From positions 4,138-68,137 of the forward strand of contig SXTU01000291.1 of NCBI GenBank assembly GCA_005791875.1: a DNA stretch of 64,000 nt, written 5' to 3'. Position numbers and translations under genes: made by a program. Shown in pieces: positions 8,272 to 61,172 of this stretch (positions are counted from its first letter, which is position 1; every line of letters begins with the position of its first letter). The stretch is from Verrucomicrobiales bacterium. Its GTDB lineage: Bacteria > Verrucomicrobiota > Verrucomicrobiia > Limisphaerales > SXTU01. The notes below the pieces were generated by a model. It was not told where the DNA came from. It ran no database searches and saw only the letters and a program-made list of their open reading frames with translations.

Positions 8272-8330
8272 ATTCAGACAGCCGGACGTTGCTGCGGCCT
8301 GAAGGCCGCGCTCCACTGACGCCTTCGCGC

Positions 8331-11300
8331 TCACGGCTTCGCCTCCACGGCCTTGAAGAAGTTCTCCAGCGCCTCGCGGAACTCCGCCGGCACCTGCCGC
8401 GTCACGCCGCTGCCTTTGCCGGTGCGGCGCGCCGCCGCCTCGGCTCCACGCGCGTCGCCAACCGTGCCCGCGCTGGCCTTGTCGGTGTTGCCGCCGTTTT
8501 GATTCGGACCGCCGGGCTGCTGGCCGGGCTTCATGCCGATTTGCGCCTCCTGCTGCGCCATCTGCATCATCATCTCGGCCTCCGCCTGCGCCTGCTGCTG
8601 TTGCTGGCCGTCCTTGGGCTTCTGCCGCTTGGCCTGCTCGTTGATGAGATTGATGAGGTCGGTCAAGTTCAGCAGCGCGTCGTTCTCCGGCTTCTGCGCG
8701 GGATCACCGGTGAGCTTGTCGAAGAGAGCTGACTCCGCGTCGCGCATGCCGTCCTGCGTGTTGAGCAAGAACTCCTTCGCCTCCTCGATGTCGTTGCTCA
8801 TCTGCAATTTGGTCAGGTCGCCGCGCAGCGCACGCTGTTGCTCCCCGACCTTCAGCGCCCCTTCGGCGTAGCGGGGGTTCTGCGCCTTCTCCTCTTCGAG
8901 CAGCATCGTCTGCTGCAACACCCGCATCTCGCCCCCGCGCAGCCGGATCGCCGCCATCAACATCTTGAGCAACTTGTCCTCCTTCGGCTGGCCCTCGCCT
9001 TCGCCTCCGCCGCTTTCCTCCTCCGGCGGCTCCAGCTTCTTCGACCAGCCGGCAAAGCGCTTCGTCCAAGTCGCGAGGTTGCCCATTGCGTCCATCGAGA
9101 TGTTCGCGTCAATCAGCCCGCGCACGCGGTCGAGCTCGTTGGGCGTGTTGACCTCCTTCATCTCCTTGGCGACCTCGCCGTAGTTCGCGCGCTGTGTGCG
9201 GTCGAAGAACCGGCTCATCTCCGCCACGACCTTCTCCGCCTCCACCTTCACGCCGCCTTGGTCGCCGGCCAGCGACGTGTTGATTTTCTTGTAACGCTCC
9301 GGCAGCTCGCTCGGCAGCAGGCCGATGGTCTCGCCCACCACCTTGCCGAGCTGCTCGCCCAGGCCCTTCTCCGACTCCGAAAGTTTCTTCAGCCGCTGTG
9401 ACAGCGTGAGCGCCTGCAAGTTGTCGAGGCCGTCGTTCATCTTCTTCTGGAGCGCCTGCAATTTCTCCAGCGCCTTCTCCTCCGCCTCAAGCGCCTTGGT
9501 CGCCTCGTCCGCGCGGTCCTTTGCCTCGCTGCTCTCCTGCGCTTTTTGGAGCGCTTGCTGCGCGTCCTTCATGTCCCCCTTCGCAAGCGACTTCATCTGC
9601 GCAAGGTTCTGCGTCCACTCGCGGAGCGTCTGCTGCGTGAGCGTCGGGTTGCGCATCGCCTCGCGCACGATGTCCTGACCCTGCTCCGCGATGCGGTCGA
9701 GTTGCGCGGCGTTGCGCGCCTGCTCGTCGGCCTGCTCGCCGGCCTTCTTCGCAGCCTCGTCGGACTTGAGCTTGTCCTCTGGCAATCCCATCAACTCGCG
9801 TGTCGCGGCGGTGATGGCTTCCTCCTTGCGCGTGACTTCCTCGACCTGTGCGAAGAGCGCGTCCAGCTGCTGCCGCACCAACTCTGCATGCTTGGAGAGG
9901 CTGACGATGTTGATGCGATGCGTGACTGACTCCGCCGGCTCGCGGCCCGGGAGGAAGTCCGTGGCCAGACCCTTCACCTCGACGACCGAGTCCGCCGGGA
10001 TGCGCATGACCGTGGGGCTGAACATGAACGTGTTCGTGAAGCGGCGCTCCTGCGCGCCCGTCGCCGACTTCCTGAACTGCGCAATCGCCGGCGTGTTCGT
10101 CGGGTCGAGCGACGCGACAATCTCGGAGGTGACTGCGCCTTCGCGCACGCCGAAGTCATCCGATGCGGAGAACCTCAGCGGCAGCACATCGGTCTCGAGA
10201 ATCGAAACCTCCATGCCGAGGTCGCCGAGGTCCACGCGTGGCGCGCCGTCCTTCATCGGGCGCAAGGCCAGCAGCCAAGGCGCGATGGGCTTCAGTCCGA
10301 ACTCATCCCGCCAATCGAACGTGGCCTGCGACGACGCGTCGAGCTTGAGCGAGCCACTATTGAACTTCTCGCCCGAGAGCAGCAGCGACACCGGCTCGGT
10401 CTTGTCCACCGTCACCTCCGCCGACGCAAGCGGGCGCGTGGCGGTGCCGGCCAGCGTGACGCGGCTGCCTTCGAGCACGGGCAACGTGGCGTTCTGCACG
10501 ACTTGGTTCGTCGCCGGGTATTGCAAGTAAGCCGGGAGTGCGACATTCGCCGCGAGCTGCTTGAGTGCGGGGCGGTGCAACGGCTTCACCGCGATGGTGT
10601 GCGTGGCGTCGCCGAGGCGGACGCGGAGCGAACCGTTCTGCGTCTGGCCGGGGATGGTGAGCTTGGCCGAGCCGTTCTTCACCGGCGCGGAAAGTTTGGA
10701 CTGCAACTCAAAGCGCCCGCTCGCGCTCGCGGGCTTCCAGAACGAGCGGTAAGTCACCTTGGCCACCAGCTCGAACGGCTCACCATGCGGCACGACGAGC
10801 TGCGCCGGCACGTTCTCGAGCGTGATGAACGTGTAGCGCGGAATGCCGGCGACCGGCACCGCCCAACGCTGAAGCGCGTTCCAACCCGCAGCTGGCGCGA
10901 CGGCGAACGCAAGCACCACCGGCACCAGCCCCGCCGCGAGCGCGATGCTCGCGAGCCGCGCGGGCCGGGAGTTCACCACCTCGAGGAAATCAAACTTCGC
11001 CGCGTCCGCCGAGACTTGCCGGATGGCCGCGCGGCAGAGCGCGAGCGACATGTTCTGCGGTCGCTGTTTCTCCTCCGCGAGTTCCACGATGCCCAGCAAC
11101 CGGTCGCCGAGCCGGCGATGCCCGTGCTGCACGACGTTCGACAACGCCCGCAAGTCGCGCCGCTGCCAAATCCAGCTCCGACACCACCGCACCGCAAACC
11201 ACGCCGCACCCGCGAGCCCCGCAAGCAACAGCGCCGTGCGCAGCGCCTTCGGCGTGTCCCCGACACGGTCGCACAGGAAGAGCAGCGCGAACGAAGCTGC

Positions 11301-11420
11301 CAGCGCCGCGACCCCGCCGGCCACCGCGTGCGTCGTCTCCGTCCGCCACAGCGCGCGCTCCAGCGCCGCGAACTGAGCGCGCAACGAGTCAGGCAGGGAG
11401 ATGCGGTTATCGGAGGCCAT
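8331..11420 (-). CDS. Large membrane protein with coiled-coil C-terminal half (DUF4175-like, unverified)
   Basis: 1029 aa from ATG 11420 (MASDNRISLPDS). It has three hydrophobic spans near the N-terminus, a beta-rich middle, and a ~450-aa Glu/Lys/Gln/Ala-rich region ending VPAEFREALENFFKAV. The track fuses it to the upstream gene as one 1285-aa ORF. Confidence 0.65.
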   Translation of the reverse strand: MASDNRISLPDSLRAQFAALERALWRTETTHAVAGGVAALAASFALLFLCDRVGDTPKALRTALLLAGLAGAAWFAVRWCRSWIWQRRDLRALSNVVQHGHRRLGDRLLGIVELAEEKQRPQNMSLALCRAAIRQVSADAAKFDFLEVVNSRPARLASIALAAGLVPVVLAFAVAPAAGWNALQRWAVPVAGIPRYTFITLENVPAQLVVPHGEPFELVAKVTYRSFWKPASASGRFELQSKLSAPVKNGSAKLTIPGQTQNGSLRVRLGDATHTIAVKPLHRPALKQLAANVALPAYLQYPATNQVVQNATLPVLEGSRVTLAGTATRPLASAEVTVDKTEPVSLLLSGEKFNSGSLKLDASSQATFDWRDEFGLKPIAPWLLALRPMKDGAPRVDLGDLGMEVSILETDVLPLRFSASDDFGVREGAVTSEIVASLDPTNTPAIAQFRKSATGAQERRFTNTFMFSPTVMRIPADSVVEVKGLATDFLPGREPAESVTHRINIVSLSKHAELVRQQLDALFAQVEEVTRKEEAITAATRELMGLPEDKLKSDEAAKKAGEQADEQARNAAQLDRIAEQGQDIVREAMRNPTLTQQTLREWTQNLAQMKSLAKGDMKDAQQALQKAQESSEAKDRADEATKALEAEEKALEKLQALQKKMNDGLDNLQALTLSQRLKKLSESEKGLGEQLGKVVGETIGLLPSELPERYKKINTSLAGDQGGVKVEAEKVVAEMSRFFDRTQRANYGEVAKEMKEVNTPNELDRVRGLIDANISMDAMGNLATWTKRFAGWSKKLEPPEEESGGGEGEGQPKEDKLLKMLMAAIRLRGGEMRVLQQTMLLEEEKAQNPRYAEGALKVGEQQRALRGDLTKLQMSNDIEEAKEFLLNTQDGMRDAESALFDKLTGDPAQKPENDALLNLTDLINLINEQAKRQKPKDGQQQQQAQAEAEMMMQMAQQEAQIGMKPGQQPGGPNQNGGNTDKASAGTVGDARGAEAAARRTGKGSGVTRQVPAEFREALENFFKAVEAKP

Positions 11421-11486
11421 TGGAATGTCTGACGGACTGTAACACCCGGTTGCTCCGTCACAATCCCCAAGTTCCCTGAGCCAGCG

Positions 11487-11590
11487 CCCGTGCCGGCGTG
11501 CTTCCAGCCGCCGTCTGCGGGCCACAGCAATTCGAGCGACGCTCAAGCACTCAACCCCCAACACGGCGGCTGGAAGCCGCCGGCACGGGC
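11487..11590. repeat. MITE-like unit with ~28-bp terminal inverted repeats carrying a mini-hairpin
   Basis: gcccgtgccggcgtgcttccagccgccgt ... acggcggctggaagccgccggcacgggc. It sits exactly between the DUF1501-like C-terminus and the next gene start. Confidence 0.85.
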
Positions 11591-12846
11591 CGCATCCCCA
11601 CAGCCCGCGCAGCTTCTCCTTCTCCGTCAGCCCCAGCGGGAATTTCTTCGCATGCGCGTGCGTGGCGATACCAGCGAACTCCCGCAATGCCTCGTGGATG
11701 TGCTCGGGGCGAATCTTCAGGCCCTTCTTCTTGTCCAGCGCAAGCGTCGCCGGGTTCAGGTTCACGCCGAACTGCTTCTCGTCCGTTGCGCCGATGACGC
11801 GGTTGCCCTTGATGCCGGGGGCGAGGAACATCACCGAGCCGATGGACCAGTAGTCTTTGCCGTTGCCCTTGTTGTAAGTCGGCGTGCGGCCCATCTCGCT
11901 CTGGATGACGATGACGAGCTTGTCCCGAATCTTCAGCGCCTCGGCCCGGCGGATGACGTAGGCGATGCCGGCGAGGAACTCGGGGATGAGCTTCATCTGG
12001 TCCACGTCGTTGTTCTGATGGCTGTCGAACTGGCCGATGCTCAGGTTCGCCGAGACGCAGACGCCGGCCTTGAACGACGCCAGCGCAATCTCCGCCTGCT
12101 GCGCGAGCCGCTCCTTGGGCACGTCCTTGGGAATGTGTGGCGTGACGCGCGCCATCGTCTTCGAGTTCACCTGCGCCGCGTAGAGCATGGACTCGGCGGC
12201 TCCGCAGCTCGCGCTGTTCCGCCAGCGCCTGCTCGATGCGCGTGAGCGCGAAGTCCTCGTGGTAGGGCGAGCGCAGGTTGCCCTCGATGTGGTCGGCGTT
12301 CGCGATTTTCTGGAGCGACGGCAGATACGGCACGCGCGACATCGCGACGACGTTGCCCGTGGCCGAGTAGTTGCCGAAGGTGAGGAACGAGAGCGGGCAG
12401 GTCGGCCCCTTCGCGGCGGCCACGAGCGCGGCGAAGGTCGGGTAGGCGAGGCTGTCGAGCTTGCCGGTGGCCATGTAGCGCGCGCCGGGCGCGTGGTTGT
12501 TCACCGAGTAGTCGAGGCCGTTGAACGTGAGCAGCTCGGAGCCGAACTCGGCGTAGAACTCCTCGTTGCTCATGCCGCCAGTCTTGTGCTTGTCCGTCGG
12601 CGCGAATTTGTCCGCGCCTTTCGTGAGGATGTCGCCCTCCTTGTAGAGGTGGTTCATCTCGTTGACGCCCTTGGGGTCAATCAAGTAGGTCGTGTCCCAG
12701 CCGCCCGAGGCGTTGAAGACGATGTAGAACAGCCCCTCGTAAGGAGGCTCCTCCTTCACCGCCGCGCGCAGCAGCGAGGTCATGCCACCGGGGCAGGCGA
12801 AGTCAAGGCCGGTGAGGGCGCAGAGTTTTAGGAAATCACGTCGCAT
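11591..12846 (-). pseudogene. DUF1501-like protein, disrupted by a +1 frame change and lacking its own stop
   Basis: It has a Tat-like start MRRDFLKLCALTG (ATG 12846). About 215 aa sit in one frame (FNASGGWDTTY ... SPYHEDFALTRIEQALAEQRELRS). The protein-like signal then moves to the frame of ORF 8331..12188 (YAAQVNSKTMARV ... QFDSHQNN ... SEMGRTPTYN), with the switch between about 12189 and 12215. Confidence 0.55.
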
Positions 12847-12979
12847 AAAAATCTGGCGTGATCGGCGTTGTTCCAAACGCTGGCCGTCAAGAAATACGCC
12901 GCCCGTTTCGGAGAATCAGAGGCTGGTCTGAGCAGGCACGCGGCTTGCCCGCAAGTGGCGGCGGGTGTAAAGAAGGTCC

Positions 12980-13120
12980 ATGCAAACAAGCATTGACCTC
13001 GACGAAGAGCTGCTTGACGAGGTGGCGAAGGCGGAAGGCCTGAACCTCAGGCCCACCCCGTCACGCTGCTGGCGGAGGCGAATCGGAAGCATGACCAATT
13101 ACCCAATGACCAATGAATGA
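12980..13120 (+). pseudogene. VapB-like (DUF2191-type) antitoxin fragment
   Basis: The 46-codon ORF MQTSIDLDEELLDEVAKAEGLN... matches the MxTxIDIDDELLxEA opening of VapB antitoxins. After about 22 aa it degenerates and runs into repeat A2. No toxin gene follows. Confidence 0.3.
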
Positions 13121-13247
13121 CCAATTGCCCAAGCCCAACCGGAGGGCGTCGTTGGGCGTTGACCTTGTGAAAACTCGTGGTTTTCGCATGGCCAGGGAGC
13201 ATTGGGCATTCTTTGGTCATTGAACATTGGGGACTGGTCATTCTCCC
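13091..13247. repeat. Heptad-word palindrome, CAATGAC-type words (copy A2)
   Basis: atgaccaattacccaatgaccaatgaatgaccaattgccc ... attgggcattctttggtcattgaacattggggactggtcattctccc. It ends 1 nt before the eda ATG. Confidence 0.85.
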
Positions 13248-14640: not shown

Positions 14641-14685
14641 GCGACGGGCGGAAGATTCCTGAACGCGCGGGCAGGGCTGCCCGCG

Positions 14686-15573
14686 CTACGCGAGGTGGAG
14701 ATTCTGGAGGATACGCCTGGTGGCGAGGGCCTTGTTCAGCGTGTAGAAGTGGATGCCTTCGGCCCCGTTCTTGAGCAGGTCGGCGCATTGCGCGGTCGCG
14801 TATTCAATGCCGAACTCGGTTGCGGCCGCGTCGTCCGCGCCGCACTTGTCGAGGCCGGCGAGGAAAAGCGCGGGCAGTTGCGCGCCGCAGAGGGCGGTGA
14901 AGCGCTTCACCTGCGAGCCGCTCGACGCGGGCAGGATGCCGGGCACGAGCGGCACGGTGACGCCTTTCTTCGAGAGGTAATCGCGAAAGGCGTAGAAGTC
15001 GGCGTTGTCGAAGAAAAGCTGCGTCACGACGAAGTCCGCGCCGCAATCAATCTTGGCTTTGAGCCGGTCCCAGTCCACGAGCTTGCCTTCCTCGCACGCG
15101 ATGTGGCCTTCGGGGAAACCGGCGGTGCCGATGCCGAAACCGCGGAGTTCGCGCAGGTAGCTGACGAGCTGGTGGGAATACTCAAAGCCGCCGGGAGTCG
15201 CCTTGAACTCGCCACCGGCGGGCGGGTCGCCGCGCAGCGCGAGGATGTTTTTGATGCCGCGCTGCCGGGCCTCGGCGAGGACGGCAGTGAGTTCGTCCTT
15301 CGTCGCGTTGACGCAGGTGAGGTGCATCATCGTGGTGAGGCCGTGCTCGCGCTGGATGCGGTCCACGATGCCGATGGTCTTCTCCCGCGTGCTGCCGCCC
15401 GCGCCGTAGGTCACGGAGCAGAAGTCAGGGCGGAGCTTCATCAGCTCCGGGATGTGTTTCTCGAAGAGGTTCTTCTCGCCCTCGTTGGTCTTCGGCGGGA
15501 AGAACTCGAACGAGATGACGGGCTGGCCTAGAGCTTTTTTGGCCGCGTGGATGTCGCGGATGAACTGAATCAT
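14686..15573 (-). CDS. metF: Methylenetetrahydrofolate reductase
   Basis: ATG 15573 (MIQFIRDIHAAKKALGQPVISFEFFPPKT...SVTYGAGGSTR...). The 35 upstream track codons are a translated repeat. Confidence 0.9.
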   Translation of the reverse strand: MIQFIRDIHAAKKALGQPVISFEFFPPKTNEGEKNLFEKHIPELMKLRPDFCSVTYGAGGSTREKTIGIVDRIQREHGLTTMMHLTCVNATKDELTAVLAEARQRGIKNILALRGDPPAGGEFKATPGGFEYSHQLVSYLRELRGFGIGTAGFPEGHIACEEGKLVDWDRLKAKIDCGADFVVTQLFFDNADFYAFRDYLSKKGVTVPLVPGILPASSGSQVKRFTALCGAQLPALFLAGLDKCGADDAAATEFGIEYATAQCADLLKNGAEGIHFYTLNKALATRRILQNLHLA

Positions 15574-17840: not shown

Positions 17841-18077
17841 GTGAGCCAGCCCAACATCTCCCAGCGTTCTCCCCTCGTGCAAAAAGCCGAACCCGGCACC
17901 TGGTGGTGGTGCTCCTGCGGCCTCTCGAAGAGCCAGCCCTTCTGCGACGGCTCGCACAAGGGCACGGAGTTCAGCCCGACGAAGGTGGAGATCACGGAGG
18001 CGAAGCAGGTGGCGTGGTGCCTGTGCAAGCACTCGAAGACGGGCGCGTTCTGCGACGGCAGCCACAAGCAGGTGTGA
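17841..18077 (+). CDS. CDGSH iron-sulfur domain protein (two CDGSH motifs)
   Basis: CSCGLSKSQPFCDGSHKG and CLCKHSKTGAFCDGSHKQ. Confidence 0.85.
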   Translation: MSQPNISQRSPLVQKAEPGTWWWCSCGLSKSQPFCDGSHKGTEFSPTKVEITEAKQVAWCLCKHSKTGAFCDGSHKQV

Positions 18078-18092
18078 CGCGCGGGCGCGCCG

Positions 18093-18584
18093 CTATGACT
18101 CCGGCGGCGGCGTGCGACGGAAGAACTTCGTCACGTTGTCGGCGTCGGAGTCGGCGAAATCCACCGTGGCGCCGGGCGCGCGCTGGCGGGCAAGCTCCAT
18201 CATCGTGTGGAGGTTAATGACTGTTGGCACCGCCTTGTCCGCGACGATTTCAGGGGCGATCTGCGTGTCGAAGACCACAACGAGGAGGCAAGTGTCGTCC
18301 ACGTGGCGGATGAGCGTGTGGAAGCCGGTGCCGCTGATGCGCAACTGCGTGAAGAAGTTTTCCTTGAGCCGCTTCGACATGGCCTGGGCTGCGTTAAAGG
18401 CGTTCGAGGCGAGGCTGGCGAACTCGCGCACGTCACCGGGCAGCTCGCCGCCGGCGCGCTGGATGAGGTAGCCCGCGCTCTCGACGACCATGGCGGACAG
18501 CACGCCGCTGCGCGACACGAGATCCTTGAGCAGCACGTCGAGCTGCTGCACGTCCTCCGTGGTGAGCTGTGGAAAACCTTTCAT
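18093..18584 (-). CDS. mglB: Roadblock/LC7 domain protein, MglB-like GTPase-activating partner
   Basis: ATG 18584 (MKGFPQLTTEDVQQLDVLLKDLVSRSGVLSAMVVESAGYLI...). It has roadblock-fold pattern and lies immediately downstream of mglA. Confidence 0.7.
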   Translation of the reverse strand: MKGFPQLTTEDVQQLDVLLKDLVSRSGVLSAMVVESAGYLIQRAGGELPGDVREFASLASNAFNAAQAMSKRLKENFFTQLRISGTGFHTLIRHVDDTCLLVVVFDTQIAPEIVADKAVPTVINLHTMMELARQRAPGATVDFADSDADNVTKFFRRTPPPES

Positions 18585-18631
18585 GGGAACGCGGGGCGCG
18601 GAACGCGGAATGCCGCCAGCAGACCGCTTCA

Positions 18632-19234: not shown

Positions 19235-19237
19235 AGG

Positions 19238-20644: not shown

Positions 20645-20745
20645 GCGGTTTTGGCCGTGATTTCACGCTGATTTTCGCGCGGAAATACGCCCAATATTCT
20701 CCCAAATCGCTTGAAGAGGCAAACAAAAAGGGCACACTCAAGCCC

Positions 20746-22528: not shown

Positions 22529-22538
22529 GCGAGACAGC

Positions 22539-49685: not shown

Positions 49686-49829
49686 GTTGACGAGACTCCG
49701 CCCGCCGGGCTGCATCGTCGCCGGACGGATTCGCGGGGCGATGCGAGGAACGGAGGAATGCTTTCACCCCAGCGGAGGAAAAGCACGCTCGACACGCGCG
49801 CATTTCCCGTGCGACATAACGCACAGCAA

Positions 49830-50678: not shown

Positions 50679-50682
50679 ACCC

Positions 50683-52422: not shown

Positions 52423-52529
52423 GGCCGGGTTCCCGGTCGCAGTTTCCCCTGTCTTTCCCGCCTGTCCGGCCACAGTGGCCGCTTGGTCTGTTCACCCGGA
52501 CAATCCACGGCCAGATGAGCTGCAAGTTT

Positions 52530-52713
52530 TCCCGGTCTGGGCTGCTCCTTCAACAGTCTGGGAGGCAACTCGGCTGTCCGGGAAGGCTTCTTGGGCAGTC
52601 CGGGCCATCCGATCGAGGCAAACTCCCATCCAGTCTTGCCAAGGTGTGACCCAGTCGAGGGAAGGTGTGACCCAGTCGGCCAAAGTTGTCATCCGGTCGG
52701 GCCAAGGAATGCT
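52530..52713. repeat. Degenerate ~21-nt tandem array (core CCAGTC...), best five units 52609-52713
   Basis: The units are ccgatcgaggcaaactcccat / ccagtcttgccaaggtgtgac / ccagtcgagggaaggtgtgac / ccagtcggccaaagttgtcat / ccggtcgggccaaggaatgct. Weaker units extend back to about 52530. The array lies in the 450-bp gene-free gap after pilB. Confidence 0.75.
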
Positions 52714-52873
52714 CCTAGAAACGGCACTTTAGCGCAGAGGCGCGAAGGCGCGGGGGAAGAGAGGGGGTGGAGCCGAGGCTATTCGCTATCCTCCATCCTC
52801 TATCCTCCTGCTTTCTCGTGGTTCTGCGTCTGTGCGCCTTTGCGCCACCACATCTCAACCGCAGGAACCAGAG

Positions 52874-54088
52874 TTACTTGCCCAGCCCCGCCGCCACCGT
52901 CTCCTGAAACGCCTTGCGGATGTCGGAGGCGTCGCCGTTCGCCATCTTCGCGCGTTGGATCATCAGGATGTAGATCGTCCCGCTCTTCGGGTCACCCCAG
53001 CTTTGCGTCCCGTAAGCGCCGCCGTGGCCGTAGGTGCCGGGCGCGAGCATCGCCGTCACGCCGATGGGTTGCTTTACGACTTGGAAGCCGAAGCCCCAGC
53101 TCATGCCCTCGGTGAAGCCGGTCTTAATCTCGCCGGTCTGCGTGCTCGTGAGCTGCTGGTGCGCGGCGGCGGAGAGGTAGCGCCTGCCGCTGGCCGTGCC
53201 GCCGTTGAGCAGCATCTGGTAGAACTTCGCCATGTCCGCCGCCGTCGAGTAGAGGCCGCCCGCCGGGCTGGCCGTGCGCCAGCGCGCGGTGAGCGGCAGG
53301 CCCTTGAGGAAATAGTTGTCCACCTCGGCCAGGCCCTTGTTCTCCGGGCCGGGCTGGTAGGCCTTCGCCACGCGACGCGCCTGCGCTTCCGTGGGCCAGA
53401 AGGTTGTGTCCTTCATGCCGAGCGGCTTGATGAGCCGCGCGTCGAGGAAGTCCGCGAAGCTCTGCCCGGACACAACCTCGACGATGCGGCCCAGCGTGTT
53501 GATGCCGGGGTTGCTGTATTGCCACTTGCTGCCGGGCTCGAAGGACAGGGGCTGGAGCGCGTAGGCCAGCGTGCGCTCACCGAGCATGAGGTCGCGGCCC
53601 GTCTCGGGAATGTCGCTGTTCAGACCGGCCGTGTGCGTGAGCAGGTCGCCCAACGTGATGCGGCGCGAAGGTTTCTTCAGGACCGTGGCCTCGGCGTTCT
53701 TCGTCGCGAGCAGCATCTGGCCCTTGAACTCCGGCAGGAACTTCTCCACCGCGTCGTCCACGGAGAGCTTGCCCTCGTCCTGCAACATCAGGATGGCGAC
53801 GCCAGTGAGCGGCTTGGTCATCGAGGCGATCCAGAACAAGTCGTCCGTCCGCATCGGCTTCTTCGCCGCGAGATCGGAGTAACCGACGGCGTCAAGCGCG
53901 AGCACCTTGCCGCCGTTCGCCACGAGCGTGACCGCGCCGGCGACGACCTGCTTGTCCACGAACTCCTGCATCCGCGTAGGGATGGCCTTGAGCGGAGCAG
54001 ACGCCGCGTCTGGCTTGGCAGCGGCGAAGGCGGTGGAGAGGACGCAAGGCGCAACGAGCGCGGCGAGGAGGAAATGGCGGCGAATCAT
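52874..54088 (-). CDS. Serine hydrolase (beta-lactamase / PBP4*-type family)
   Basis: Signal MIRRHFLLAALVAPCVLSTAFAAA. S-x-x-K motif FWIASMTKPLTG, and YSN later. Confidence 0.85.
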   Translation of the reverse strand: MIRRHFLLAALVAPCVLSTAFAAAKPDAASAPLKAIPTRMQEFVDKQVVAGAVTLVANGGKVLALDAVGYSDLAAKKPMRTDDLFWIASMTKPLTGVAILMLQDEGKLSVDDAVEKFLPEFKGQMLLATKNAEATVLKKPSRRITLGDLLTHTAGLNSDIPETGRDLMLGERTLAYALQPLSFEPGSKWQYSNPGINTLGRIVEVVSGQSFADFLDARLIKPLGMKDTTFWPTEAQARRVAKAYQPGPENKGLAEVDNYFLKGLPLTARWRTASPAGGLYSTAADMAKFYQMLLNGGTASGRRYLSAAAHQQLTSTQTGEIKTGFTEGMSWGFGFQVVKQPIGVTAMLAPGTYGHGGAYGTQSWGDPKSGTIYILMIQRAKMANGDASDIRKAFQETVAAGLGK

Positions 54089-54146
54089 GGCGGGAGGTTA
54101 GGAAGCGACGGTGAAGCAGGCCAGTCTGTTTTCAGAGGAGGGGGAA

Positions 54147-54214
54147 AGTGTTCAGTGTTCAGTGTTCAGCGGGGCGTGCGGAGGCAGGGCAACTTTCTGA
54201 ACACTGAACACTGC
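54147..54214. repeat. Heptad-word palindrome, AGTGTTC / GAACACT words (copy C2)
   Basis: agtgttc x3, then spacer ggggcgtgcggaggcagggcaactttc, then ctgaacactgaacactgc. The spacer ends resemble those of C1. It fills the gap between the ceramidase-like stop and the hydrolase start. Confidence 0.9.
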
Positions 54215-55633
54215 TTACTTCCCCTTCAGCTCCCCCAGCATCTCCAGCAGCGCCGTGACGATCTTCGTCGAGGCCTGCTCCTCCAACCGGTTCGTTCCCA
54301 TCCACGTCTCGTAACCGCCCAGGCGATGGTGCGCGGGCGTGGGCAGGTAGCCGTAGTAGCCGTTGGCAATCGAGTGCGTGAAGCTCGGCTTGAAGGGATT
54401 GCGCGCCTTCAGTTCCAGTCCCGTCTCCACAAACGTCTCGCACGGAATCCCCGTGAGGCCCACGTCGCCGACGCGCAGCGCCTGAATCGGAATCGCCAGC
54501 CGCGCCGGATACTCCGCCATGCCCAGCGTGCGCTCGGCGTAAATCTCCTCCAGCGTCGCCGGGCGCGGCAGGCTCTTCGGGCGGCCGAGCACTTCCTTCG
54601 CGCGGGCGATTTGCTCGGGCGTCGGGCGGCGTGTGCCGACTTCGAGTTCGCGCAACTGCCCGCCCAGCGGAACCCAGTCGCGATACTGGATGCCTTGCAG
54701 CGCCTTGAACGCGACTGCCGCCACGTCATTGGCCACGAGTTGCATCCGCGCGTAAGGCTCGTCGCGCGTGCCAGGCTTGGAGAAATCAATGTTGTTGATG
54801 TTGCCGCTCGTGCCATTGGCCAGCATCGCGACGAACGCCGGGCGCTGCCGGTCCGCGCCGAGGAGTTGCTGGAGCCGGTCGCAGAACAGCGCGAAGTAAT
54901 CCGCCGAGATGTGCCCGTTGCCGACGCCGCCGACGTAGTGCAGCGAGTAGTTCGCCAGCACCGCGATGGGCCGGCCCTGGGGCGACTGCACGGACACGAG
55001 GCAGATTTCCGGGTCGGTCGGGCCGGAGGGTCGGTCGAGGCTTGGGCTGGCGCGCCCCGGGTTCATCTTCACGAGGTCGTTCGTGCTGCCGAAGGGATTC
55101 ACCGGCATCGTGCCGGGCTTGAGGAACCACCGGCGGTTGAAGACATGGTTCGGTTCCTGCCCCGTCGCCCAGCCGATGCGCGCGGGCGCGAGGTTGTTCA
55201 TCGCGCGGCGCACGCCGTCTGCGATGCGCCGCGCGACGAACTGCTGATACTCATCGAGCGGCGTGTGGATGCGGAAGCGGTTCGTGCCCAGCGCGCTTGT
55301 CGCCGAGTGCGTGTGCGTCGAGGACATGAAGAGATTCGCGCCGGGCAGTCCGGTCTCCTCCGTCACCAGCCGCCGCGCCGCGTCATAGACTTCCCGCGAG
55401 GCCCCGAGCAAGTCGCACACGACGATGGCCAGCCGCGTCTCGCCGTTGTCCAGCGCGAGGCAGCGCGCGTGCAGCTCGTCGTGGATGTGCGTGGAGGGAA
55501 TAGGGTGGAAGCCGCCGATGATGCCGCCGCCGAGCGGGGGCGTGAGGTTGCTCAAGGCCGCGCCGGCACGGAGGATTTGGGGCTTGTCCGCCGCAGTGAC
55601 GGGCAGGGCGATGAGGGAGAGAAACAAAATCAT
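54215..55633 (-). CDS. Neutral/alkaline ceramidase-like hydrolase
   Basis: ATG 55633 (MILFLSLIALPVTAA). LGGGIIGGFHPIPSTHIHDELHARCLALDNGETRLAIVVCDLLG and SSTHTHSA resemble the ceramidase_alk N-domain (from memory). Confidence 0.6.
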   Translation of the reverse strand: MILFLSLIALPVTAADKPQILRAGAALSNLTPPLGGGIIGGFHPIPSTHIHDELHARCLALDNGETRLAIVVCDLLGASREVYDAARRLVTEETGLPGANLFMSSTHTHSATSALGTNRFRIHTPLDEYQQFVARRIADGVRRAMNNLAPARIGWATGQEPNHVFNRRWFLKPGTMPVNPFGSTNDLVKMNPGRASPSLDRPSGPTDPEICLVSVQSPQGRPIAVLANYSLHYVGGVGNGHISADYFALFCDRLQQLLGADRQRPAFVAMLANGTSGNINNIDFSKPGTRDEPYARMQLVANDVAAVAFKALQGIQYRDWVPLGGQLRELEVGTRRPTPEQIARAKEVLGRPKSLPRPATLEEIYAERTLGMAEYPARLAIPIQALRVGDVGLTGIPCETFVETGLELKARNPFKPSFTHSIANGYYGYLPTPAHHRLGGYETWMGTNRLEEQASTKIVTALLEMLGELKGK

Positions 55634-55638
55634 GATGG

Positions 55639-55738
55639 CACCGCAGAGGCGGGACGGACGCAGAGGAGCGGCGGAAGAACTTAGAGATCCGCTCTTCTGG
55701 TTCCAGTCTTCCTCTGCGGCTGTCCCGCCTCTGCGGTG
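55639..55738. repeat. ~100-bp palindrome in the divergent ceramidase-like / esterase intergenic region
   Basis: caccgcagaggcgggacggacgcagagg (55639-55666) pairs with cctctgcggctgtcccgcctctgcggtg (55711-55738). Confidence 0.8.
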
Positions 55739-55813
55739 CAAATCCCCGGCGGTGTAACCAAAGCGGTGGAGGTGAAGTCCAGTCATACGCAAATTCTCTG
55801 TGTTGCTCTCGCC

Positions 55814-57331
55814 ATGAAACGCCTCGCCCTTCTCCTTGTCACGTCTGCATTCCTCACCTTCACCGACGCCGTCGTGCGTGCTGACGTGAAGCTCCCGGCC
55901 ATCTTCGGCGACCACATGGTTCTACAGCGTGACACCGTCGTGCCCGTCTGGGGCACCGCTTCTCCCGGCGAGGAGGTCACCGTGTCCCTTGCTGGACAGA
56001 CTGCGAGCGCGAAGGCCGGCGCGGACGGCAAGTGGTCCGTAAAGCTCACCAAGCTGTCCGCCGCGGGTCCGCACACACTCACGGTGAAGGGCAAAAACAC
56101 CGTGACGCTTTCCGACGTGCTCGTCGGCGAGGTCTGGCTCGGCTCCGGCCAATCCAACATGGCGATGACCGTGAACCGTGCGAAGGACTTCGCCCAGGAG
56201 CAGGGAACTGCGAAATTCCCGCAGGTCCGCATGTTCACCGAGGCGTCCGGCGGGGCTGGCAGCGCGCAGTCCGAGGGCAAAGGCAAGTGGGTCGTCTGCG
56301 CGCCAGAGTCAGTCGGGTCCTTCTCGGCCACGGCATATTTCTTTGGCCGCGAGATTCACAAGGCGCTCGGCGTGCCCGTTGGCCTCATTAACTCCTCCGT
56401 CGGCGGCACGCCCATCGAGTCGTGGATTGCGCCCGGTGCGCAGACGGCGGCACCCGAGTTGAAGGGATTCTTCGAGTCCGCTCGCAACGCGAAGAAGGCC
56501 GTCGACCCCACGCAGGCAAAGGCGAAGTTCGATGCCGACCTCGCCAAGTGGCAGGAGGCAGCGAAGAAAGCGAAGGCCGACGGCAAGCCCGCGCCGAAGC
56601 GTCCACAAGACCCCGTCGCGCTCGCCGAACGCAAGGGCAACGTGGGCGGCCTCTTCAACGGGAAGATTTCCGCGCTCATCCCCTACGCCATTCGCGGCGC
56701 ACTGTGGTATCAGGGCGAGGCAAACTCCGCGCCGGAGAAGGCGCAGTTCTACGAGGCGCAGCTCAAGCTCCTCGTGAGCGACTGGCGGAAGCTCTGGGGC
56801 TACGAGTTTCCGTTCGCGTGGGTGCAGCTCCCCAACTTCGGCGGCGCGGGCCGCGACTGGCCGCTCGTGCGCGAGGCGATGCTCAAGACACTTGCGCTGC
56901 CGAAGACCGGCATGGCCATCACGATAGACATCGGCGAGGAGAAGGACATCCACCCGAAGAACAAACAGGACGTGGGCCGCCGTCTCGCCGTGTGGGCGCT
57001 TGGCTCGGTGTATGGGCAGAAAGTCGCAACGAGCGGCCCGCTTCCCGCGGGCCATCAAGTGCGTGGGAGCGAAATCGTCTTGAGCTTCAAGCACACTGAC
57101 GGGGGCCTCACCGCGAAGGGCGGCGAGCTGAAAGGCTTCGTCATCGCCGGCGCAGATCAGCAGTGGAAGCCCGCGACCGCGCGCATCGAAGGCGACAAAG
57201 TCATCGTCACCAGCGCGGACGTGAAGCAACCCACCGCCGCGCGCTACGCGTGGGAGAACTGGCCGACGTGCAACCTCTTCAACGGTGCCGGTCTGCCCGC
57301 TTCGCCCTTCCGCACGGATGATTGGAAGTAG
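55814..57331 (+). CDS. Sialate O-acetylesterase-like SGNH hydrolase (paralog 2)
   Basis: ATG 55814 (MKRLALLLVTSAF...). It carries VKLPAIFGDHMVLQRD, WLGSGQSNMAMTV and IRGALWYQGEAN, and is collinear with the 46523..48130 protein. Confidence 0.8.
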   Translation: MKRLALLLVTSAFLTFTDAVVRADVKLPAIFGDHMVLQRDTVVPVWGTASPGEEVTVSLAGQTASAKAGADGKWSVKLTKLSAAGPHTLTVKGKNTVTLSDVLVGEVWLGSGQSNMAMTVNRAKDFAQEQGTAKFPQVRMFTEASGGAGSAQSEGKGKWVVCAPESVGSFSATAYFFGREIHKALGVPVGLINSSVGGTPIESWIAPGAQTAAPELKGFFESARNAKKAVDPTQAKAKFDADLAKWQEAAKKAKADGKPAPKRPQDPVALAERKGNVGGLFNGKISALIPYAIRGALWYQGEANSAPEKAQFYEAQLKLLVSDWRKLWGYEFPFAWVQLPNFGGAGRDWPLVREAMLKTLALPKTGMAITIDIGEEKDIHPKNKQDVGRRLAVWALGSVYGQKVATSGPLPAGHQVRGSEIVLSFKHTDGGLTAKGGELKGFVIAGADQQWKPATARIEGDKVIVTSADVKQPTAARYAWENWPTCNLFNGAGLPASPFRTDDWK

Positions 57332-57338
57332 TGGCGCA

Positions 57339-57417
57339 GGTAGGGCGCGTCTGTCCCGGCGCGCCGGTTGGGCTTTCGGATGGTCTGGCGGCGCGCTGGG
57401 GACGGACGCGCCCTACC
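57339..57417. mobile_element. 79-bp TIR element GGTAGGGCGCGTC...GACGCGCCCTACC (copy B2), MITE-like
   Basis: It folds as a ~27-bp imperfect stem and lies between convergent stops (57331 and 57425). It is homologous to 23557-23635. Confidence 0.85.
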
Positions 57418-57424
57418 TCATGAC

Positions 57425-58546
57425 TCAGGGAATCTGCGCTTCCAACAGCATGCCGTCCGCTCCCGCCGTCACCACGCAGAAATCCGCCGGCTGGCCGACC
57501 TCGATTTCGTTGCGCAGGCCCATGAGTTCCGCCGGGCGTTGGGAAAAGTGCGGCCAGACGTCGCGCCAGGATTTGCCGAGCATCTGCGCGGCGCGGGTGA
57601 TGCCATCAACCGGCTTGAGCGCCGAGCCGGCGAAGTTGGGCTTGCCCGGCTGGCGCACGATCTGGTCCGCGCCGACTTCGAGCTCGATGCTGCCAATCGT
57701 GTAGCGGCCCGGCGGCGCGCCGGCGGCGGACATCGCATCCGTCGTGTAGTAGATGCGCTCTGGTGGCAGGGCGCGATGCATGTGCCGGAAGAGCAGCGGC
57801 GAGACGTGGTGCGTGTCCGGAATGAGACTGGGCATGAGACCGGGCGTGTCGAAGACGCGCCAAAGGATGTTGTCGTGCCGGTCAAGCTGCTGCGGAATAC
57901 CGTTGCCCAGATGCGTGAAGCCGCGTGCGCCAGCGGCCACCGCCGCACGCATCGTGTCCGCCGAGACATTCGTGTGCCCCAAGCTCACCACGATGCCAAG
58001 CGAGGTCGAGAGCCGGATGGCTTCGAGCGAACCGCCGCGCTCCGGCGCGAGTGTGAGCAGGACGGGGTCGCAGCCGGTGACGGCGCGCAGTTCGCGGATG
58101 TCGGCCTCGGTCGCATCGCGCATGACGGCGGGATTGTGCGCACCCTTGAAGCCGACTTCCGGGGAGAGAAACGGGCCTTCAATGTGCCAGCCCACCAGTG
58201 CCGTGCGGAGTTCGGGACTTGCATCACGGATCGCCTTCGCCCGGCGCACCCGTGACATGAGCTTGGGCCACTCGTCCGTGATGAGGGTGAAGAAGAAACG
58301 CCCGCAGCCATCACGGCGCATCTGGCGCGCAGCGGAGAGAAGATGCGCCTCGGTGAGATGGTCGTCGCGCTGGAAGTCCACGCCACCGTAGCCGTTGATT
58401 TGGAGGTCAAGCAGCGTGGGCGCGAGCCAAGTGCCGGACATGTCCGCTGGACCGGCGCTGACTTCCGAGATGACGCCGTCGCTCCATTTCAAGCGCAGCG
58501 GCTGGCCGCTAGCGAAGTGGCGTCCGCACATTTGACCGTGGTGCAT
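57425..58546 (-). CDS. nagA: N-acetylglucosamine-6-phosphate deacetylase
   Basis: LDLQINGYGGVDF, GWHIEGPFLS, SLGHTN, and YYTTDAMSAAG. Confidence 0.85.
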   Translation of the reverse strand: MHHGQMCGRHFASGQPLRLKWSDGVISEVSAGPADMSGTWLAPTLLDLQINGYGGVDFQRDDHLTEAHLLSAARQMRRDGCGRFFFTLITDEWPKLMSRVRRAKAIRDASPELRTALVGWHIEGPFLSPEVGFKGAHNPAVMRDATEADIRELRAVTGCDPVLLTLAPERGGSLEAIRLSTSLGIVVSLGHTNVSADTMRAAVAAGARGFTHLGNGIPQQLDRHDNILWRVFDTPGLMPSLIPDTHHVSPLLFRHMHRALPPERIYYTTDAMSAAGAPPGRYTIGSIELEVGADQIVRQPGKPNFAGSALKPVDGITRAAQMLGKSWRDVWPHFSQRPAELMGLRNEIEVGQPADFCVVTAGADGMLLEAQIP

Positions 58547-58594
58547 GGCTGATTCCTAGCGTGAGGAGTGGCGGGGAACGAGCAAAATTCCCAA

Positions 58595-59458
58595 TCAGCC
58601 TGCGCTGCGTTGCAACTGTCGGCGGTAGTCGCGTGGGGTCAGGCGCGTGATCTCGCGGAAGCGGCGGTTGAAGTTCGCGAGGTTGCGGAAGCCGCAGTCC
58701 AGTGCGATGTCGGTGACCTTGCGCTCCTCGTTGGCGAGCAGACGGCACGCGCGGCCAACGCGCAGCTCGTTCACGTATGCGGGCAGCGTCTTGCCGGTGC
58801 GCAGCTTGAAGAAGCGGCTGAACGCGCCCTCGCTCAGGTGCGCCGCGCGCGCAACGGTGGCGCGGTCAATGGTGTCCGTGAGGTGCGTGTGGATGTGCGC
58901 CGTGACGCGAGCCATGCGGCCTTGGTCTTCGCTGGAAAGGCTCGGCACGAAGCCGGCGCTGGCGATGGGCTGGAGTTCGCGCGATTGGGCGAGCGTTTCT
59001 AGAATGCCGAGCAGCTCGGCGATGCGGTTCAAGCCCTTCGCCTCGACCAACCGGTGCAGCCGCTCCGCCGCTGCGTCGCGCGTGCGGCCCGTGACGCGCA
59101 GGCCACGCGCGGCGCGGCGGAGGAGCCGCTTCACGGCCGCTGCCTCGGGGATCTCCAGGAAGTCGCGGCCCAGCAGCGTATCGAGGAAGCGCACGACAAC
59201 GGCGTGGACCGCAGCGCGGCCACCCCCGGCATCCTGCTGCCAGACGTGCGGGAGATTGGAGCCGACCAGCACGAGGTCGCCGGGCCCGAGCGGTGTGATG
59301 TTGTCGCCGACAAGCCGGTAGCCGCTGCTCTTGAGGACGAGGGTGATCTGAAACTCAGGGTGAAAGTGCCACGTCGCGCCGTAGCCCGGCCCGCGCACGA
59401 CCTCGCAGTGGAAGCATTCCCACTGGCGCTGCGGCGTCTGCTCGAAGACGGGTTTCAC
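58595..59458 (-). CDS. AraC-family transcriptional regulator (cupin + HTH)
   Basis: The N-terminal cupin-like half contains WHFHPEFQ. The C-terminal half (LSEGAFSRFFKLRTGKTLPAYVNELRVGRACRLL...DIALDCGFRNLANFNRRF) is AraC-type. Confidence 0.85.
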   Translation of the reverse strand: MKPVFEQTPQRQWECFHCEVVRGPGYGATWHFHPEFQITLVLKSSGYRLVGDNITPLGPGDLVLVGSNLPHVWQQDAGGGRAAVHAVVVRFLDTLLGRDFLEIPEAAAVKRLLRRAARGLRVTGRTRDAAAERLHRLVEAKGLNRIAELLGILETLAQSRELQPIASAGFVPSLSSEDQGRMARVTAHIHTHLTDTIDRATVARAAHLSEGAFSRFFKLRTGKTLPAYVNELRVGRACRLLANEERKVTDIALDCGFRNLANFNRRFREITRLTPRDYRRQLQRSAG

Positions 59459-59553
59459 GTCGTCAGCTTAATGGCGGATCAAGCCAGCCGGAAGCTTCTC
59501 CTGATGGGAGATGGCGGGCTTGCAGTCGGCGGTGGAATGCAGACACTGCGGCC

Positions 59554-59913
59554 ATGCGTCCATTCCAAATCATCTTCACGCCGACCGGGGCCGCCGAGCT
59601 GTCCAAGATGCCCAAGGAGCTGCAGCTCCAGATCCTCGGTGAGTTTCGCGGCCTGCCACAGGAGGTCATCAGCACGGAGCTGGAGCGCTTCGGCAAGCTG
59701 GAGCGCGACGGCCATGTGCTGCACCGCTTCCGCGTGGGCGACTACCGGATCTACTTCGAACGCCACGAGCTGGGCGTGCTGGTGCAGCGCATCCTGAGCA
59801 AGAACTCGCTGAAGGATTTTCTCTTCCGCTCCAGCCTGCCGCTGGGCGAGGACGAGGCGTTGCAGGACAACCCGAAGTTCTGGGAGCTGATGCAGTCGGC
59901 GAAGGCGAAGTAA
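59554..59913 (+). CDS. RelE/ParE-fold toxin-like protein with ~35-aa C-terminal extension
   Basis: IIFTPTGAAELSKMPKELQLQILGEF ... HRFRVGDYRIYFERHELGVLVQRI follows the ParE/RelE pattern (RVGDYRIIY). No adjacent antitoxin ORF is present. Confidence 0.55.
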   Translation: MRPFQIIFTPTGAAELSKMPKELQLQILGEFRGLPQEVISTELERFGKLERDGHVLHRFRVGDYRIYFERHELGVLVQRILSKNSLKDFLFRSSLPLGEDEALQDNPKFWELMQSAKAK

Positions 59914-59915
59914 AG

Positions 59916-59984
59916 GGAAAGTAACTAGTAATTAGTGCTCAGTCCCACTGGGGGCGTGCCTTCACTAAATACTAATCACTTTCC
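59916..59984. repeat. Heptad-word palindrome, AT-rich GTAATTAGTG-type words (copy F2)
   Basis: ggaaagtaactagtaattagtg pairs with cactaaatactaatcactttcc (19 of 22 by hand). It lies between convergent stops 59913 and 59994. Confidence 0.8.
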
Positions 59985-59993
59985 GCCTCCCAC

Positions 59994-60605
59994 TCAGTCC
60001 CCCAGCTCGACGTTCCAGTAGGCGAGGTCGAGGAAGTGTTTCCAACTGTCGTGGTATTCCACGCCGAAGTTGAGCTGCACGAAGGGCCGCCACTTGGGCT
60101 TCTTGGGCTTGCGGATGAGGTGCATGCCACACTCGGACGGCGAATGGTTGCTCTTGCGTGTGTTGCAGGGCACGCAGGAGCACACGATGTTTTCCCAAGT
60201 CGTCGGCCCGCCGCGATCGCGCGGGACGACGTGGTCGAGGTTCAGGTCCTTCCGGTCGAGGGTCTGGCCGCAGTATTGGCAGGTGTTCTTGTCGCGCTCG
60301 AAGATGTTGTGCCGGGTGAACTTCACTTCCTTGCGCGGCAGGCGGTCGAACACCGCGAGCATGATGACGCGCGGCACACGGATCCGGAACGAGATGCCGC
60401 GCACGGACTCCGGGTGCGGCTCGCGGCGTGAGAAGTCTGCCCACTCTGGGAAGTCGTAGGTCTGAAACGCGCCGTCCTGGTCGCCGAGCACCACTTGGGC
60501 GTGGCCTTGAAACAAAAGGGAGAGCGCCCGCCGCGCGGTGCAGATGTTCACTGCCTGCCACAAACGGTTCAGCACGAGCACTGGTTGGTTGAGTAGCGTA
60601 GTCAT
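59994..60605 (-). CDS. HNH endonuclease
   Basis: ATG 60605. CQYCGQTLDRKDLNLDHVVPRDRGGPTTWENIVCSCVPCNTRK. Confidence 0.8.
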   Translation of the reverse strand: MTTLLNQPVLVLNRLWQAVNICTARRALSLLFQGHAQVVLGDQDGAFQTYDFPEWADFSRREPHPESVRGISFRIRVPRVIMLAVFDRLPRKEVKFTRHNIFERDKNTCQYCGQTLDRKDLNLDHVVPRDRGGPTTWENIVCSCVPCNTRKSNHSPSECGMHLIRKPKKPKWRPFVQLNFGVEYHDSWKHFLDLAYWNVELGD

Positions 60606-60754
60606 AACCGCCGCAATGCCCGCGGAAACTAGCAACGCCGCTTCCATCGTGTCAATGGTGGCGAAGCGGCGTTAAGGAGGAAAAACCCGCTTGGAATGGG
60701 GTCGGAACGTGCGTGCCCACCTGGCTGCAGCAGCTCAACTTGGATGGCTCCAGC

Positions 60755-60946
60755 TCACGCGTTGTCCTGCCCCTTCACGCCCTTGCCGTGCTGGCGCTGG
60801 CGGTTGGGGCGGAACGCGCGGTCGGGGCCTTCGGTGCCATTGGCCTCGCCCATGTAGAGGCTCAGGAGATAGGCGCGCTTGGTCTGCTGCGCCTGCTGCT
60901 GGCGGCGACCTCGGATCAGTTCGGCAATTCTGGCAAGCAAGCGCAT
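60755..60946 (-). CDS. Small basic hypothetical protein (63 aa), weak call
   Basis: MRLLARIAELIRGRRQQQAQQTKRAYLL... Third-position GC is gene-like, but the family is not recognisable and a + strand ORF competes. Confidence 0.3.
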   Translation of the reverse strand: MRLLARIAELIRGRRQQQAQQTKRAYLLSLYMGEANGTEGPDRAFRPNRQRQHGKGVKGQDNA

Positions 60947-61033
60947 CGGCTGTCGTGACGACAGCGGCGAGCTTGCGGGAAACCGGGCCTGGCTGAAAGT
61001 GGAAATCCTCAGCCAGCACGATGCAGTTGGAGC

Positions 61034-61172
61034 GCCGGCTTCCAAGCCGGCTTAACGCATCCGAACACGAGGAAGTGCATGTGATCGGTCGCGGAGTCGG
61101 TTTTGGAGGAGGCATCAAACTGCTGACACGCCTCATTCAACCCATCACGCGTAAGCCGGCTTGGAAGCCGGG
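61034..61172. repeat. MITE-like unit with ~24-bp terminal inverted repeats each containing gccggctt-NN-aagccgg(c)
   Basis: gccggcttccaagccggcttaacgc (61034-61058) and gcgtaagccggcttggaagccggg (61149-61172). Confidence 0.8.

Follow-up and report, generated by a model that had tools for sequence, protein, structure and literature searches.

The DNA analysed here, a stretch of 64,000 nucleotides from contig SXTU01000291.1 (the window), carries a set of short GC-rich hairpins that we interpret as repetitive extragenic palindromic (REP) elements, arranged in inverted doublets like those called REPINs and thought to be spread by a REP-associated tyrosine transposase (RAYT). We put the probability of this reading at about 85%. 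An organisation resembling REPs and bacterial interspersed mosaic elements (BIMEs) had been suggested by an initial annotation made from the letters alone, and is now supported by the covariation of the stems, by inverted REP pairs that fold as one hairpin, and by one of the repeats (family A) flanking RAYT genes in related genomes. The host is an uncultured member of the Verrucomicrobiota, Pedosphaera/Limisphaerales-like, since two proteins of the window share 90%-identity clusters with proteins from Pedosphaera/Limisphaerales MAGs (metagenome-assembled genomes). The DNA corresponds to the metagenome contig k141_1530160 of ENA assembly ERZ27257034, with near-identical contigs in sister samples; the window has a G+C content of 64-69%, and its gene content, with DUF1501 and PSCyt/PSD1 genes, fits a host of this phylum. 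The elements are of the REP/REPIN kind already described in Verrucomicrobia, and represent new members in a Pedosphaera-like lineage rather than a new kind.

REP doublets in the window

The initial annotation listed eight mini-hairpins, each of which is present where it was placed, and named three units with terminal inverted repeats (11487-11590, 48233-48349 and 61034-61172), which proved to be real both in an inverted-repeat search and by direct reading. It regarded the hairpins as only partly organised in such units, but an unbiased repeat search showed that every one of them is one arm of an inverted-repeat unit of 86-151 bp, with 44789-44889 being one unit. The window holds seven units and one solitary copy in total (Table 1), among them elements that had been overlooked, namely the left arms of units A1 and A2, the whole of unit A3 and the solitary copy.

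Each arm consists of an unpaired 5-nt head (GGAGC, GTAGC or GTGCC) and a GC-rich palindrome, and is 21-23 nt long with a stem of 7-8 bp and a loop of 2-3 nt. Two arms stand inverted to each other, heads outwards, around a spacer of 40-100 nt, and together they make up the unit; seven of the eight loci are doublets of this type, and the median unit length in other genomes is 97 bp. The hairpins had previously been taken as a single family with the core GC-N-GGCT, but that consensus mixes groups and the motif is not a conserved core. Instead, at least four related families can be told apart among the arms (A, B, C and D/E); they coexist in this genome and share a common plan of head, palindrome and inverted pairing. 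Conservation is seen in the 5-nt head, in the outer stem and in the T-A pair that closes the loop. A true GTAG head occurs only in family C and in the solitary copy, while GGAG is found at the same position in families A and B, and GTGC in D/E. Units D and E also have a common spacer.

When folded as single-stranded DNA, each unit forms one long hairpin (z = -1.7 to -9.6; below -2.5 in five of the seven). A covariance model was built from the arms, leaving family B (8-bp stem, poor fit) out of the training set, and applied unfiltered to the entire window. It recovered the unit arms together with the untrained arms of family B and the solitary copy, and nothing else in the window scored above 15 bits. 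Moreover, identical 21-mers recur at distant loci of the window in a direct-repeat search.

Whether such hairpins exceed the frequency expected for this base composition depends on how they are defined. Taken as a class, perfect hairpins show no enrichment, with 93 in the window against 114±9.5 in dinucleotide shuffles for stems of at least 6 and loops of 2-5, and 35 against 31 for stems of at least 7. Hairpins that bear a 5-nt head of the form G[GT][AG][GC]C on a stem of at least 7, on the other hand, number 10 against 1.73±1.36 (maximum of 6 in 100 shuffles), and heads-out pairs of tagged hairpins 40-200 nt apart number 3 against 0.03. A reversed-sequence control for the tagged hairpins was discarded in favour of the dinucleotide shuffles, because reversing a sequence preserves its palindromes.

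Copies in other genomes and compensatory stem changes

Family A was searched for in one genome per GTDB species with the pattern GGAGCGCGGNNTTCANNCCGC, which leaves two inner positions of each stem strand free. At least 118 loci were found, nearly all of them in metagenome-assembled genomes (MAGs) of several orders of Verrucomicrobiota; those among the matches listed include Pedosphaera/Limisphaerales, Akkermansiaceae, Luteolibacter, Prosthecobacter and others. The few matches in Streptomyces or Mycobacteriales have non-complementary residues at the free positions and look like background. Both free pairs are Watson-Crick complementary in 132 of the 148 matches listed (89%, against ~6% by chance), and nine different types of dinucleotide pair occur at these positions. 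The partner arm, which the search did not constrain, is similar in this respect: its outer GCGG/CCGC and its closing T-A hardly change, pairs 5 and 6 may be C-G, A-T or G-C, and only 4 of 108 cells there are unpaired. The two arms differ from each other in 36 of 54 units (heterodimers), and in 29 of these 36 both arms are perfectly self-complementary; the constraint therefore acts on the small hairpin of each arm and not on pairing between the arms.

The D/E family was searched for in metagenomes of the Joint Genome Institute (JGI) with the pattern GTGCCGGCGNNTTSCANNCGCC, which gave at least 119 loci. The free pairs are complementary in 152 of the 182 matches listed (84%, again against ~6% by chance) and comprise ten pair types, six of which are seen in more than one match. 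These copies are mostly inverted doublets with a spacer matching that of units D and E of the window; five D/E units in the metagenome loci were usable for comparing orientation with that of the flanking genes. The same metagenome loci carry incidental copies of A, B and C, among them compensated variants (e.g. GCCGGTTT/AAACCGG), and variants of families B and C occur in related loci.

The stems thus keep Watson-Crick pairing while two inner positions vary freely. Pair counting on two alignments, the second of which had been fitted to the covariance model, found 99% and 97.6% of cells paired, and none of 500 shuffles reached the observed covariation score. The proposal that stem positions change in compensating pairs and that structure is under selection, which had been drawn from the few copies in the window, is accordingly borne out by independent data for both A and D/E, and the covariation among the collected copies is strong and derives from hundreds of independent loci.

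Association with RAYT transposases

RAYT genes were searched for by tblastn with the RAYT sequences from the supplement of PMC3733652, and candidates were scored with NCBIfam NF047646 (REP-associated tyrosine transposase; cut-off 80 bits). In a Luteolibacter MAG (locus L037) a RAYT gene with a Pfam Y1_Tnp match (1759-2397) lies between ureG and ureD. One family-A doublet ends ~10 nt 5' of its start and a second doublet overlaps its 3' end. The same arrangement, each time with its own stem variant, is seen in Luteolibacter sp. SL250 (L125; RAYT at CP113054 157539-158189), in an Akkermansiaceae MAG (L126) and in a third contig (L127), where one family-A REP lies 40-125 nt upstream of the Y1_Tnp gene and a REP doublet overlaps the 3' end. 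Three of these four genes were scored against NF047646 and pass its cut-off (86 bits for L037, 84.5 for L125 and 91 for L127), and the same three proteins fall below the IS200 cut-off. The L037 protein has 5491 homologues, many of them labelled RayT by their source. The site in the ureG-ureD gap of the urease operon is common to L037, L125 (5001-5651) and L126 (5001-5633), and such a fixed position in Luteolibacter and Akkermansiaceae suggests long vertical inheritance of a single-copy RAYT.

The other RAYT-like genes encountered are each flanked by their own REP type. An Oter_2468-like RAYT (L123) is flanked by a different REP, GTAGGGCGCGAGCTTGCTCGCC. In locus L187, a RAYT-like gene (2522-3121) that scores 68.8 bits on NF047646, short of the 80-bit cut-off, has on its flanks GTGGC-GGGGACACTCTTGTCCCC, which is the same repeat as a unit at 46315-46404 of the window.

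Some further repeats were observed alongside these genes. The window unit at 46315-46404 is REPIN-like and belongs to a further family, with arms GTAAC-GGGGACA-CTCC-TGTCCC and, reverse-complemented, GTGGA-GGGGACA-CTCT-TGTCCCC. Two copies of an 82-nt unit, 77% identical, are located at 23554-23635 and 57336-57417 and have inverted ends GGTAGGGCGCG...CGCGCCCTACC; their head resembles the REPs beside the L160 RAYT and the Oter_2468-like RAYT of L123. A RAYT-like gene in L209 (about 9100-10300) is flanked by a further abundant repeat, GGAGT-GCGGTGAC-TYG-TCACCGC, which also occurs in L136, L162 and L233; when translated this repeat gives the recurrent pseudo-peptide ME/ECGDLSPL.

Proposed mode of spread and points that weigh against it

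By the mechanism we favour, the RAYT, an HUH/Y1 transposase of the IS200/IS605 superfamily, would bind the hairpin plus head in folded single-stranded DNA, cut beside it, and copy or move the doublet during replication, presumably leaving no target-site duplication. Only hairpins that still fold would remain mobile, and if only foldable variants propagate, new subfamilies would therefore be expected to carry paired, compensated stem changes. After insertion the elements would be transcribed within operon mRNAs, where a secondary role as RNA stem-loops may exist (e.g. protection of 3' ends), although the observed pattern can be explained without it.

Several observations weigh against this reading. 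The search for a RAYT suggested in the initial annotation gave none in the window or in ~17 kb of adjoining sequence (~81 kb of the genome covered). In 912 kb of related metagenome loci, D/E, B or C repeats likewise had no RAYT beside them, and even at E <= 5 the 119 metagenome loci contain no RAYT within 500 nt of a D/E repeat; this missing neighbour is weak evidence, because a RAYT, if single-copy, would seldom lie next to a given repeat. The 21-nt core of family A is the same across at least two orders and hence more conserved than typical species-specific REPINs, which could indicate a host function. Neither GGAGC nor GTGCC has a head of the GTAG variants (GYAG, GYRG, GTRG, GTMG, GTGG) given in PMC3733652. 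Finally, no unit is polymorphic for presence or absence among four near-identical contigs from other samples, so that mobility is something we infer and have not seen.

The near-invariance of the family-A core (GGAGCGCGG-NN-TTCA-NN-CCGC) in at least two orders, and the fixed ureG-ureD site of the RAYT in Verrucomicrobiales, lead us to a more speculative proposal, which we regard as doubtful: that a single, vertically inherited REPIN-RAYT partnership predates the split of these orders and would be far older than documented pairs, or else that the core has been co-opted for a host function as a protein-binding or mRNA-processing site. On the same tentative footing, the D/E family, abundant without a RAYT neighbour in the 912 kb, could owe its mobility to action in trans or to another enzyme. 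Many REP families and RAYT clades exist side by side in Verrucomicrobiota, and a repeat core shared between orders could help to date REPIN-RAYT associations. The known working of such elements is unchanged by our results.

Alternative explanations

Among the alternatives, the one that survives best is that the units are primarily functional RNA, i.e. stem-loops in intercistronic regions or 3' untranslated regions that stabilise the upstream mRNA or tune operon expression, with no spread by a transposase. The covarying stems, the conservation of the family-A core across orders and the position of all eight loci between co-directional genes shortly after a stop codon (0-102 nt) would agree with this, and according to PMC3733652 transcription and action as RNA are probable for many REPs. 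Rfam, however, gave no match at gathering scores, and at E <= 1 only sub-threshold models of eukaryotic microRNAs on other palindromes, so that the check proposed in the initial annotation returned nothing relevant at either level. Among mismatched pairs, which are too few to carry weight, G·T and A·C number 0 and 6 in family A but 7 and 2 in D/E; a preference for G·U wobble does not emerge, and what asymmetry there is between strands is slight and runs in opposite senses in the two families. The units are near-palindromic overall, which leaves them without strand information; RAYT genes are flanked by the same repeats; and the insertion of units in stop codons and called open reading frames (ORFs) is typical of mobile DNA. 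We therefore consider a primary RNA function improbable, while an RNA-level role is possible as a secondary one and is compatible with REPs.

Considerably less probable is that the units are classical miniature inverted-repeat transposable elements (MITEs), i.e. deletion derivatives of an insertion sequence with a DDE transposase that are moved via their terminal inverted repeats. Their length of 86-151 bp and their inverted ends agree with such an organisation, which had been put forward beside the REP/BIME one, but no direct target-site duplication was seen at any unit when the flanks of all of them were read directly. In addition, the arms are palindromes with a conserved head, which is a signature of REPs rather than of insertion sequence ends; a solitary arm exists in the window, and other genomes contain many single arms; and RAYT is the only gene class found flanked by the arms.

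Chance GC-rich palindromes or ordinary intrinsic terminators can practically be discounted: the overall hairpin density is indeed at or below the shuffle expectation, but a chance origin is excluded by the multi-copy matches (identical 21-mers at distant loci and hundreds of copies elsewhere), the complementary free positions and the strong enrichment of tagged hairpins and heads-out pairs, and as for terminators, no T tract follows the stems and units E, C and B are not among the terminator-like sites in the 18 kb scanned (44000-62000).

Relation to known systems

The REP doublets of the window are closest to the GTAG-tagged REPs described by Di Nocera et al. 2013 (PMC3733652) in Opitutus terrae (GTAG-17 to GTAG-20) and Rhodopirellula baltica, which belong to the same phylum or superphylum. 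As described there, those elements have stems of 6-9 bp, with an unpaired tag adjoining one end; the families, several of which occur together in one genome, form head-to-head and tail-to-tail dimers including heterodimers, and have subfamilies with 'alternative complementary stem residues'. They are sited between co-directional genes and are frequently inserted in or at the ends of ORFs, O. terrae having the highest number of intragenic insertions, and the RAYT genes are flanked by repeats. All these features are paralleled by the elements studied here. The differences are that the present host is Pedosphaera/Limisphaerales-like and that the heads GGAGC and GTGCC are distinct; it should also be noted that the likeness stated here is one of described features.

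The REPINs of Pseudomonas fluorescens SBW25 (Bertels & Rainey 2011) likewise consist of two inverted REPs and a spacer, which form a hairpin-forming unit of ~100 bp, and doublets outnumber singlets. There, too, a single-copy RAYT is flanked by the same REPs, as at the conserved ureG-ureD position in Luteolibacter/Akkermansiaceae. The Pseudomonas families, however, are specific to a species or clade, whereas the family-A 21-nt core is common to at least two orders, and no RAYT of the present genome was found in the ~81 kb searched.

The REP/BIME system of Escherichia coli with TnpA-REP (RayT/YafM) resembles the present one in its palindrome with an adjoining GTAG-type tag and in its HUH/Y1 partner enzyme, and the E. 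coli RAYT gives weak tblastn matches to verrucomicrobial RAYTs (24-30% identical). The family-A palindrome also has the 14-mer GGCGTTCACGCCGC in common with what we take to be the E. coli REP sequence. In BIMEs, the spacers contain defined motifs to which IHF and gyrase bind.

Some units are read through in frame (the fusion at unit D, and units A2, A3 and C in ORF 5' ends), which recalls Rickettsia palindromic elements (RPEs) and other intragenic REPs. In contrast to RPEs, the read-through here follows the loss of a stop in a frameshifted gene that is probably a pseudogene. To our knowledge, RPEs are of the CGTC type or unrelated elements, and have no known dedicated transposase.

Location of the units and effects on genes

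The positions of all elements are given in Table 1. All eight loci lie between genes of the same strand, 0-102 nt past the upstream stop codon. The left extension of the contig (8.5 kb) contributed two further D/E units and the right extension (8.7 kb) no units, so that ~81 kb of contig, window plus flanks, contain nine units and one solitary copy, all in intergenic spacers or at ORF ends.

Table 1. Consensus arms of the REP families, and positions, scores and surroundings of the elements found in the window. Bits are covariance-model scores; z refers to the fold of the whole unit.
Feature	Position	Strand	Type or arm sequence	Bits	Fold z	Remarks
Family A			GGAGC-GCGGNNT-TC-ANNCCGC
Family B			GGAGC-GCCGGCTT-CC-AAGCCGGC
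Family C			GTAGC-GCAGRCT-TGC-AGYCNGC
Family D/E			GTGCC-GGCGNNT-TSC-ANNCGCC
Unit A1	8217-8314		family A REPIN-like doublet, 98 bp	29.2 and 33.3 (arms)	-2.9	16 nt 3' of stop (8331-8333) of large minus-strand gene
A1 left arm	8217-8237	+	GGAGC-GCGGCGT-TC-ACGCTGC
A1 right arm	8294-8314	-	GGAGC-GCGGCCT-TC-AGGCCGC
Unit D	11487-11590		family D/E doublet, 104 bp		-9.6
D left arm	11490-11512	+	GTGCC-GGCGtGCT-TCC-AGCCGCC			1-nt insertion
D right arm	11565-11586	-	GTGCC-GGCGGCT-TCC-AGCCGCC
Solitary REP	14665-14689	-	GTAGC-GCGGGCAG-CC-CTGCCCGC	18.5 (E = 0.074)		outside training set; in 45-nt spacer between MTHFR and UreF genes
Unit A2	26802-26905		family A doublet, 104 bp	31.7 and 34.4 (arms)	-3.8	66 nt 3' of stop of gene 26972-27889 (-); overlaps called 5' end of ORF 26132-26929 (-)
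A2 left arm	26802-26822	+	GGAGC-GCGGCGT-TC-ACGCCGC
A2 right arm	26885-26905	-	GGAGC-GCGGGCT-TC-AGCCCGC
Unit A3	39804-39889		decayed family A unit, 86 bp			right palindrome lost; tail GCGCTCC (39883-39889) all that is left
A3 left arm	39804-39824	+	intact	31.7
Unit E	44789-44889		family D/E doublet, 101 bp	23.6 and 26.1 (arms)		between gene 44926-45654 (-) and radical-SAM gene 43650-44717 (-)
E left arm	44792-44812	+	GTGC-GGCGGTT-TGC-AACCGCC
E right arm	44865-44886	-	GTGCC-GGCGATT-TGC-AATCGCC
Unit C	48233-48349		family C doublet, 117 bp	29.0 and 31.4 (arms)		102 nt 3' of SASA esterase gene stop; within called 5' end of ankyrin-repeat ORF 48186-49685 (+)
C left arm	48235-48256	+	GTAGC-GCAGACT-TGC-AGTCgGC
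C right arm	48325-48346	-	GTAGC-GCAGGCT-TGC-AGCCTGC
Unit B	61028-61178		family B doublet, 151 bp; inverted-repeat match 27 nt, 96%	25.4 and 15.3 (arms)	-7.4	starts 4 nt past DUF4912 gene TGA stop (61182-61184)
B left arm	61029-61051	+	GGAGC-GCCGGCTT-CC-AAGCCGGC
B right arm	61155-61177	-	GGAGC-CCCGGCTT-CC-AAGCCGG

Unit D had been noticed at the point where a DUF1501-like gene has lost its stop codon, and comparison with homologues confirms this. Intact homologues (427 aa, 91-93% identical) have the C-terminus ...EKLRGLWG followed by TGA, while the window reads ...GLWG TGC GGC CCG TGC CGG...; the repeat therefore starts inside the former stop codon, and the frame is open into the next gene. The DUF1501-like gene itself (11595-12876, minus strand) has a frameshift near 12190-12230, with a net deletion of 29 nt relative to the 93%-identical 427-aa homologues, and with both its frameshift and its lost stop it is probably a pseudogene. 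The gene callers of five assemblies give a 1285-aa fusion of this gene with the downstream one. A stop codon is also involved at the solitary REP, where the TAG (14686-14688) of the minus-strand MTHFR gene falls within the GTAG head, and units A2, A3 and C are within the called 5' ends of ORFs. REP units thus make gene callers extend or fuse ORFs, as in the 1285-aa fusion and at the 5' ends of the ankyrin, rhomboid-like and 1359-aa ORFs, and the repeats generate recurring pseudo-peptides in protein databases.

The near-identical strain contigs differ by a 7-nt indel, a 4.4-kb segment and point changes only. The indel consists of 7 extra bases (AACACGC) at window position 15674 in the three contigs covering the site (L001-L003). 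The sister-sample contig L004 joins 17976 to 22378 and lacks the 4.4 kb in between (window 17977-22377), with no repeat at the junction, which may represent a strain deletion or an assembly chimera.

Other repeats and paralogues

Three near-perfect intergenic inverted repeats, whose arms (24-32 nt) are 93-100% complementary, are located at 40671-40728, 55638-55739 and 39894-40017. The first is a doublet of GGAGCA-CGGACG-CCCA-CGTCCG with 10 nt between its arms. Weak Rfam matches of these three repeats to eukaryotic microRNA hairpins are noise. AT-richer arrays of CAATGACC-like heptamers or octamers, often in inverted blocks, are found in intergenic regions at 1290-1431, 8170-8210, 13104-13222 and 23495-23726, one of them adjoining unit A1.

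A motif GGGRAAGT...GTTCAGTGTTCAGTGTTCAG is present near gene ends at 33457-33486 and 54142-54171 (90% identical), and in weaker form at 4375-4404 and 59915-59944. Finally, two genes for SASA-type carbohydrate esterases (46412-48130 and 55736-57331) are paralogous, with ~72% DNA identity over several blocks.

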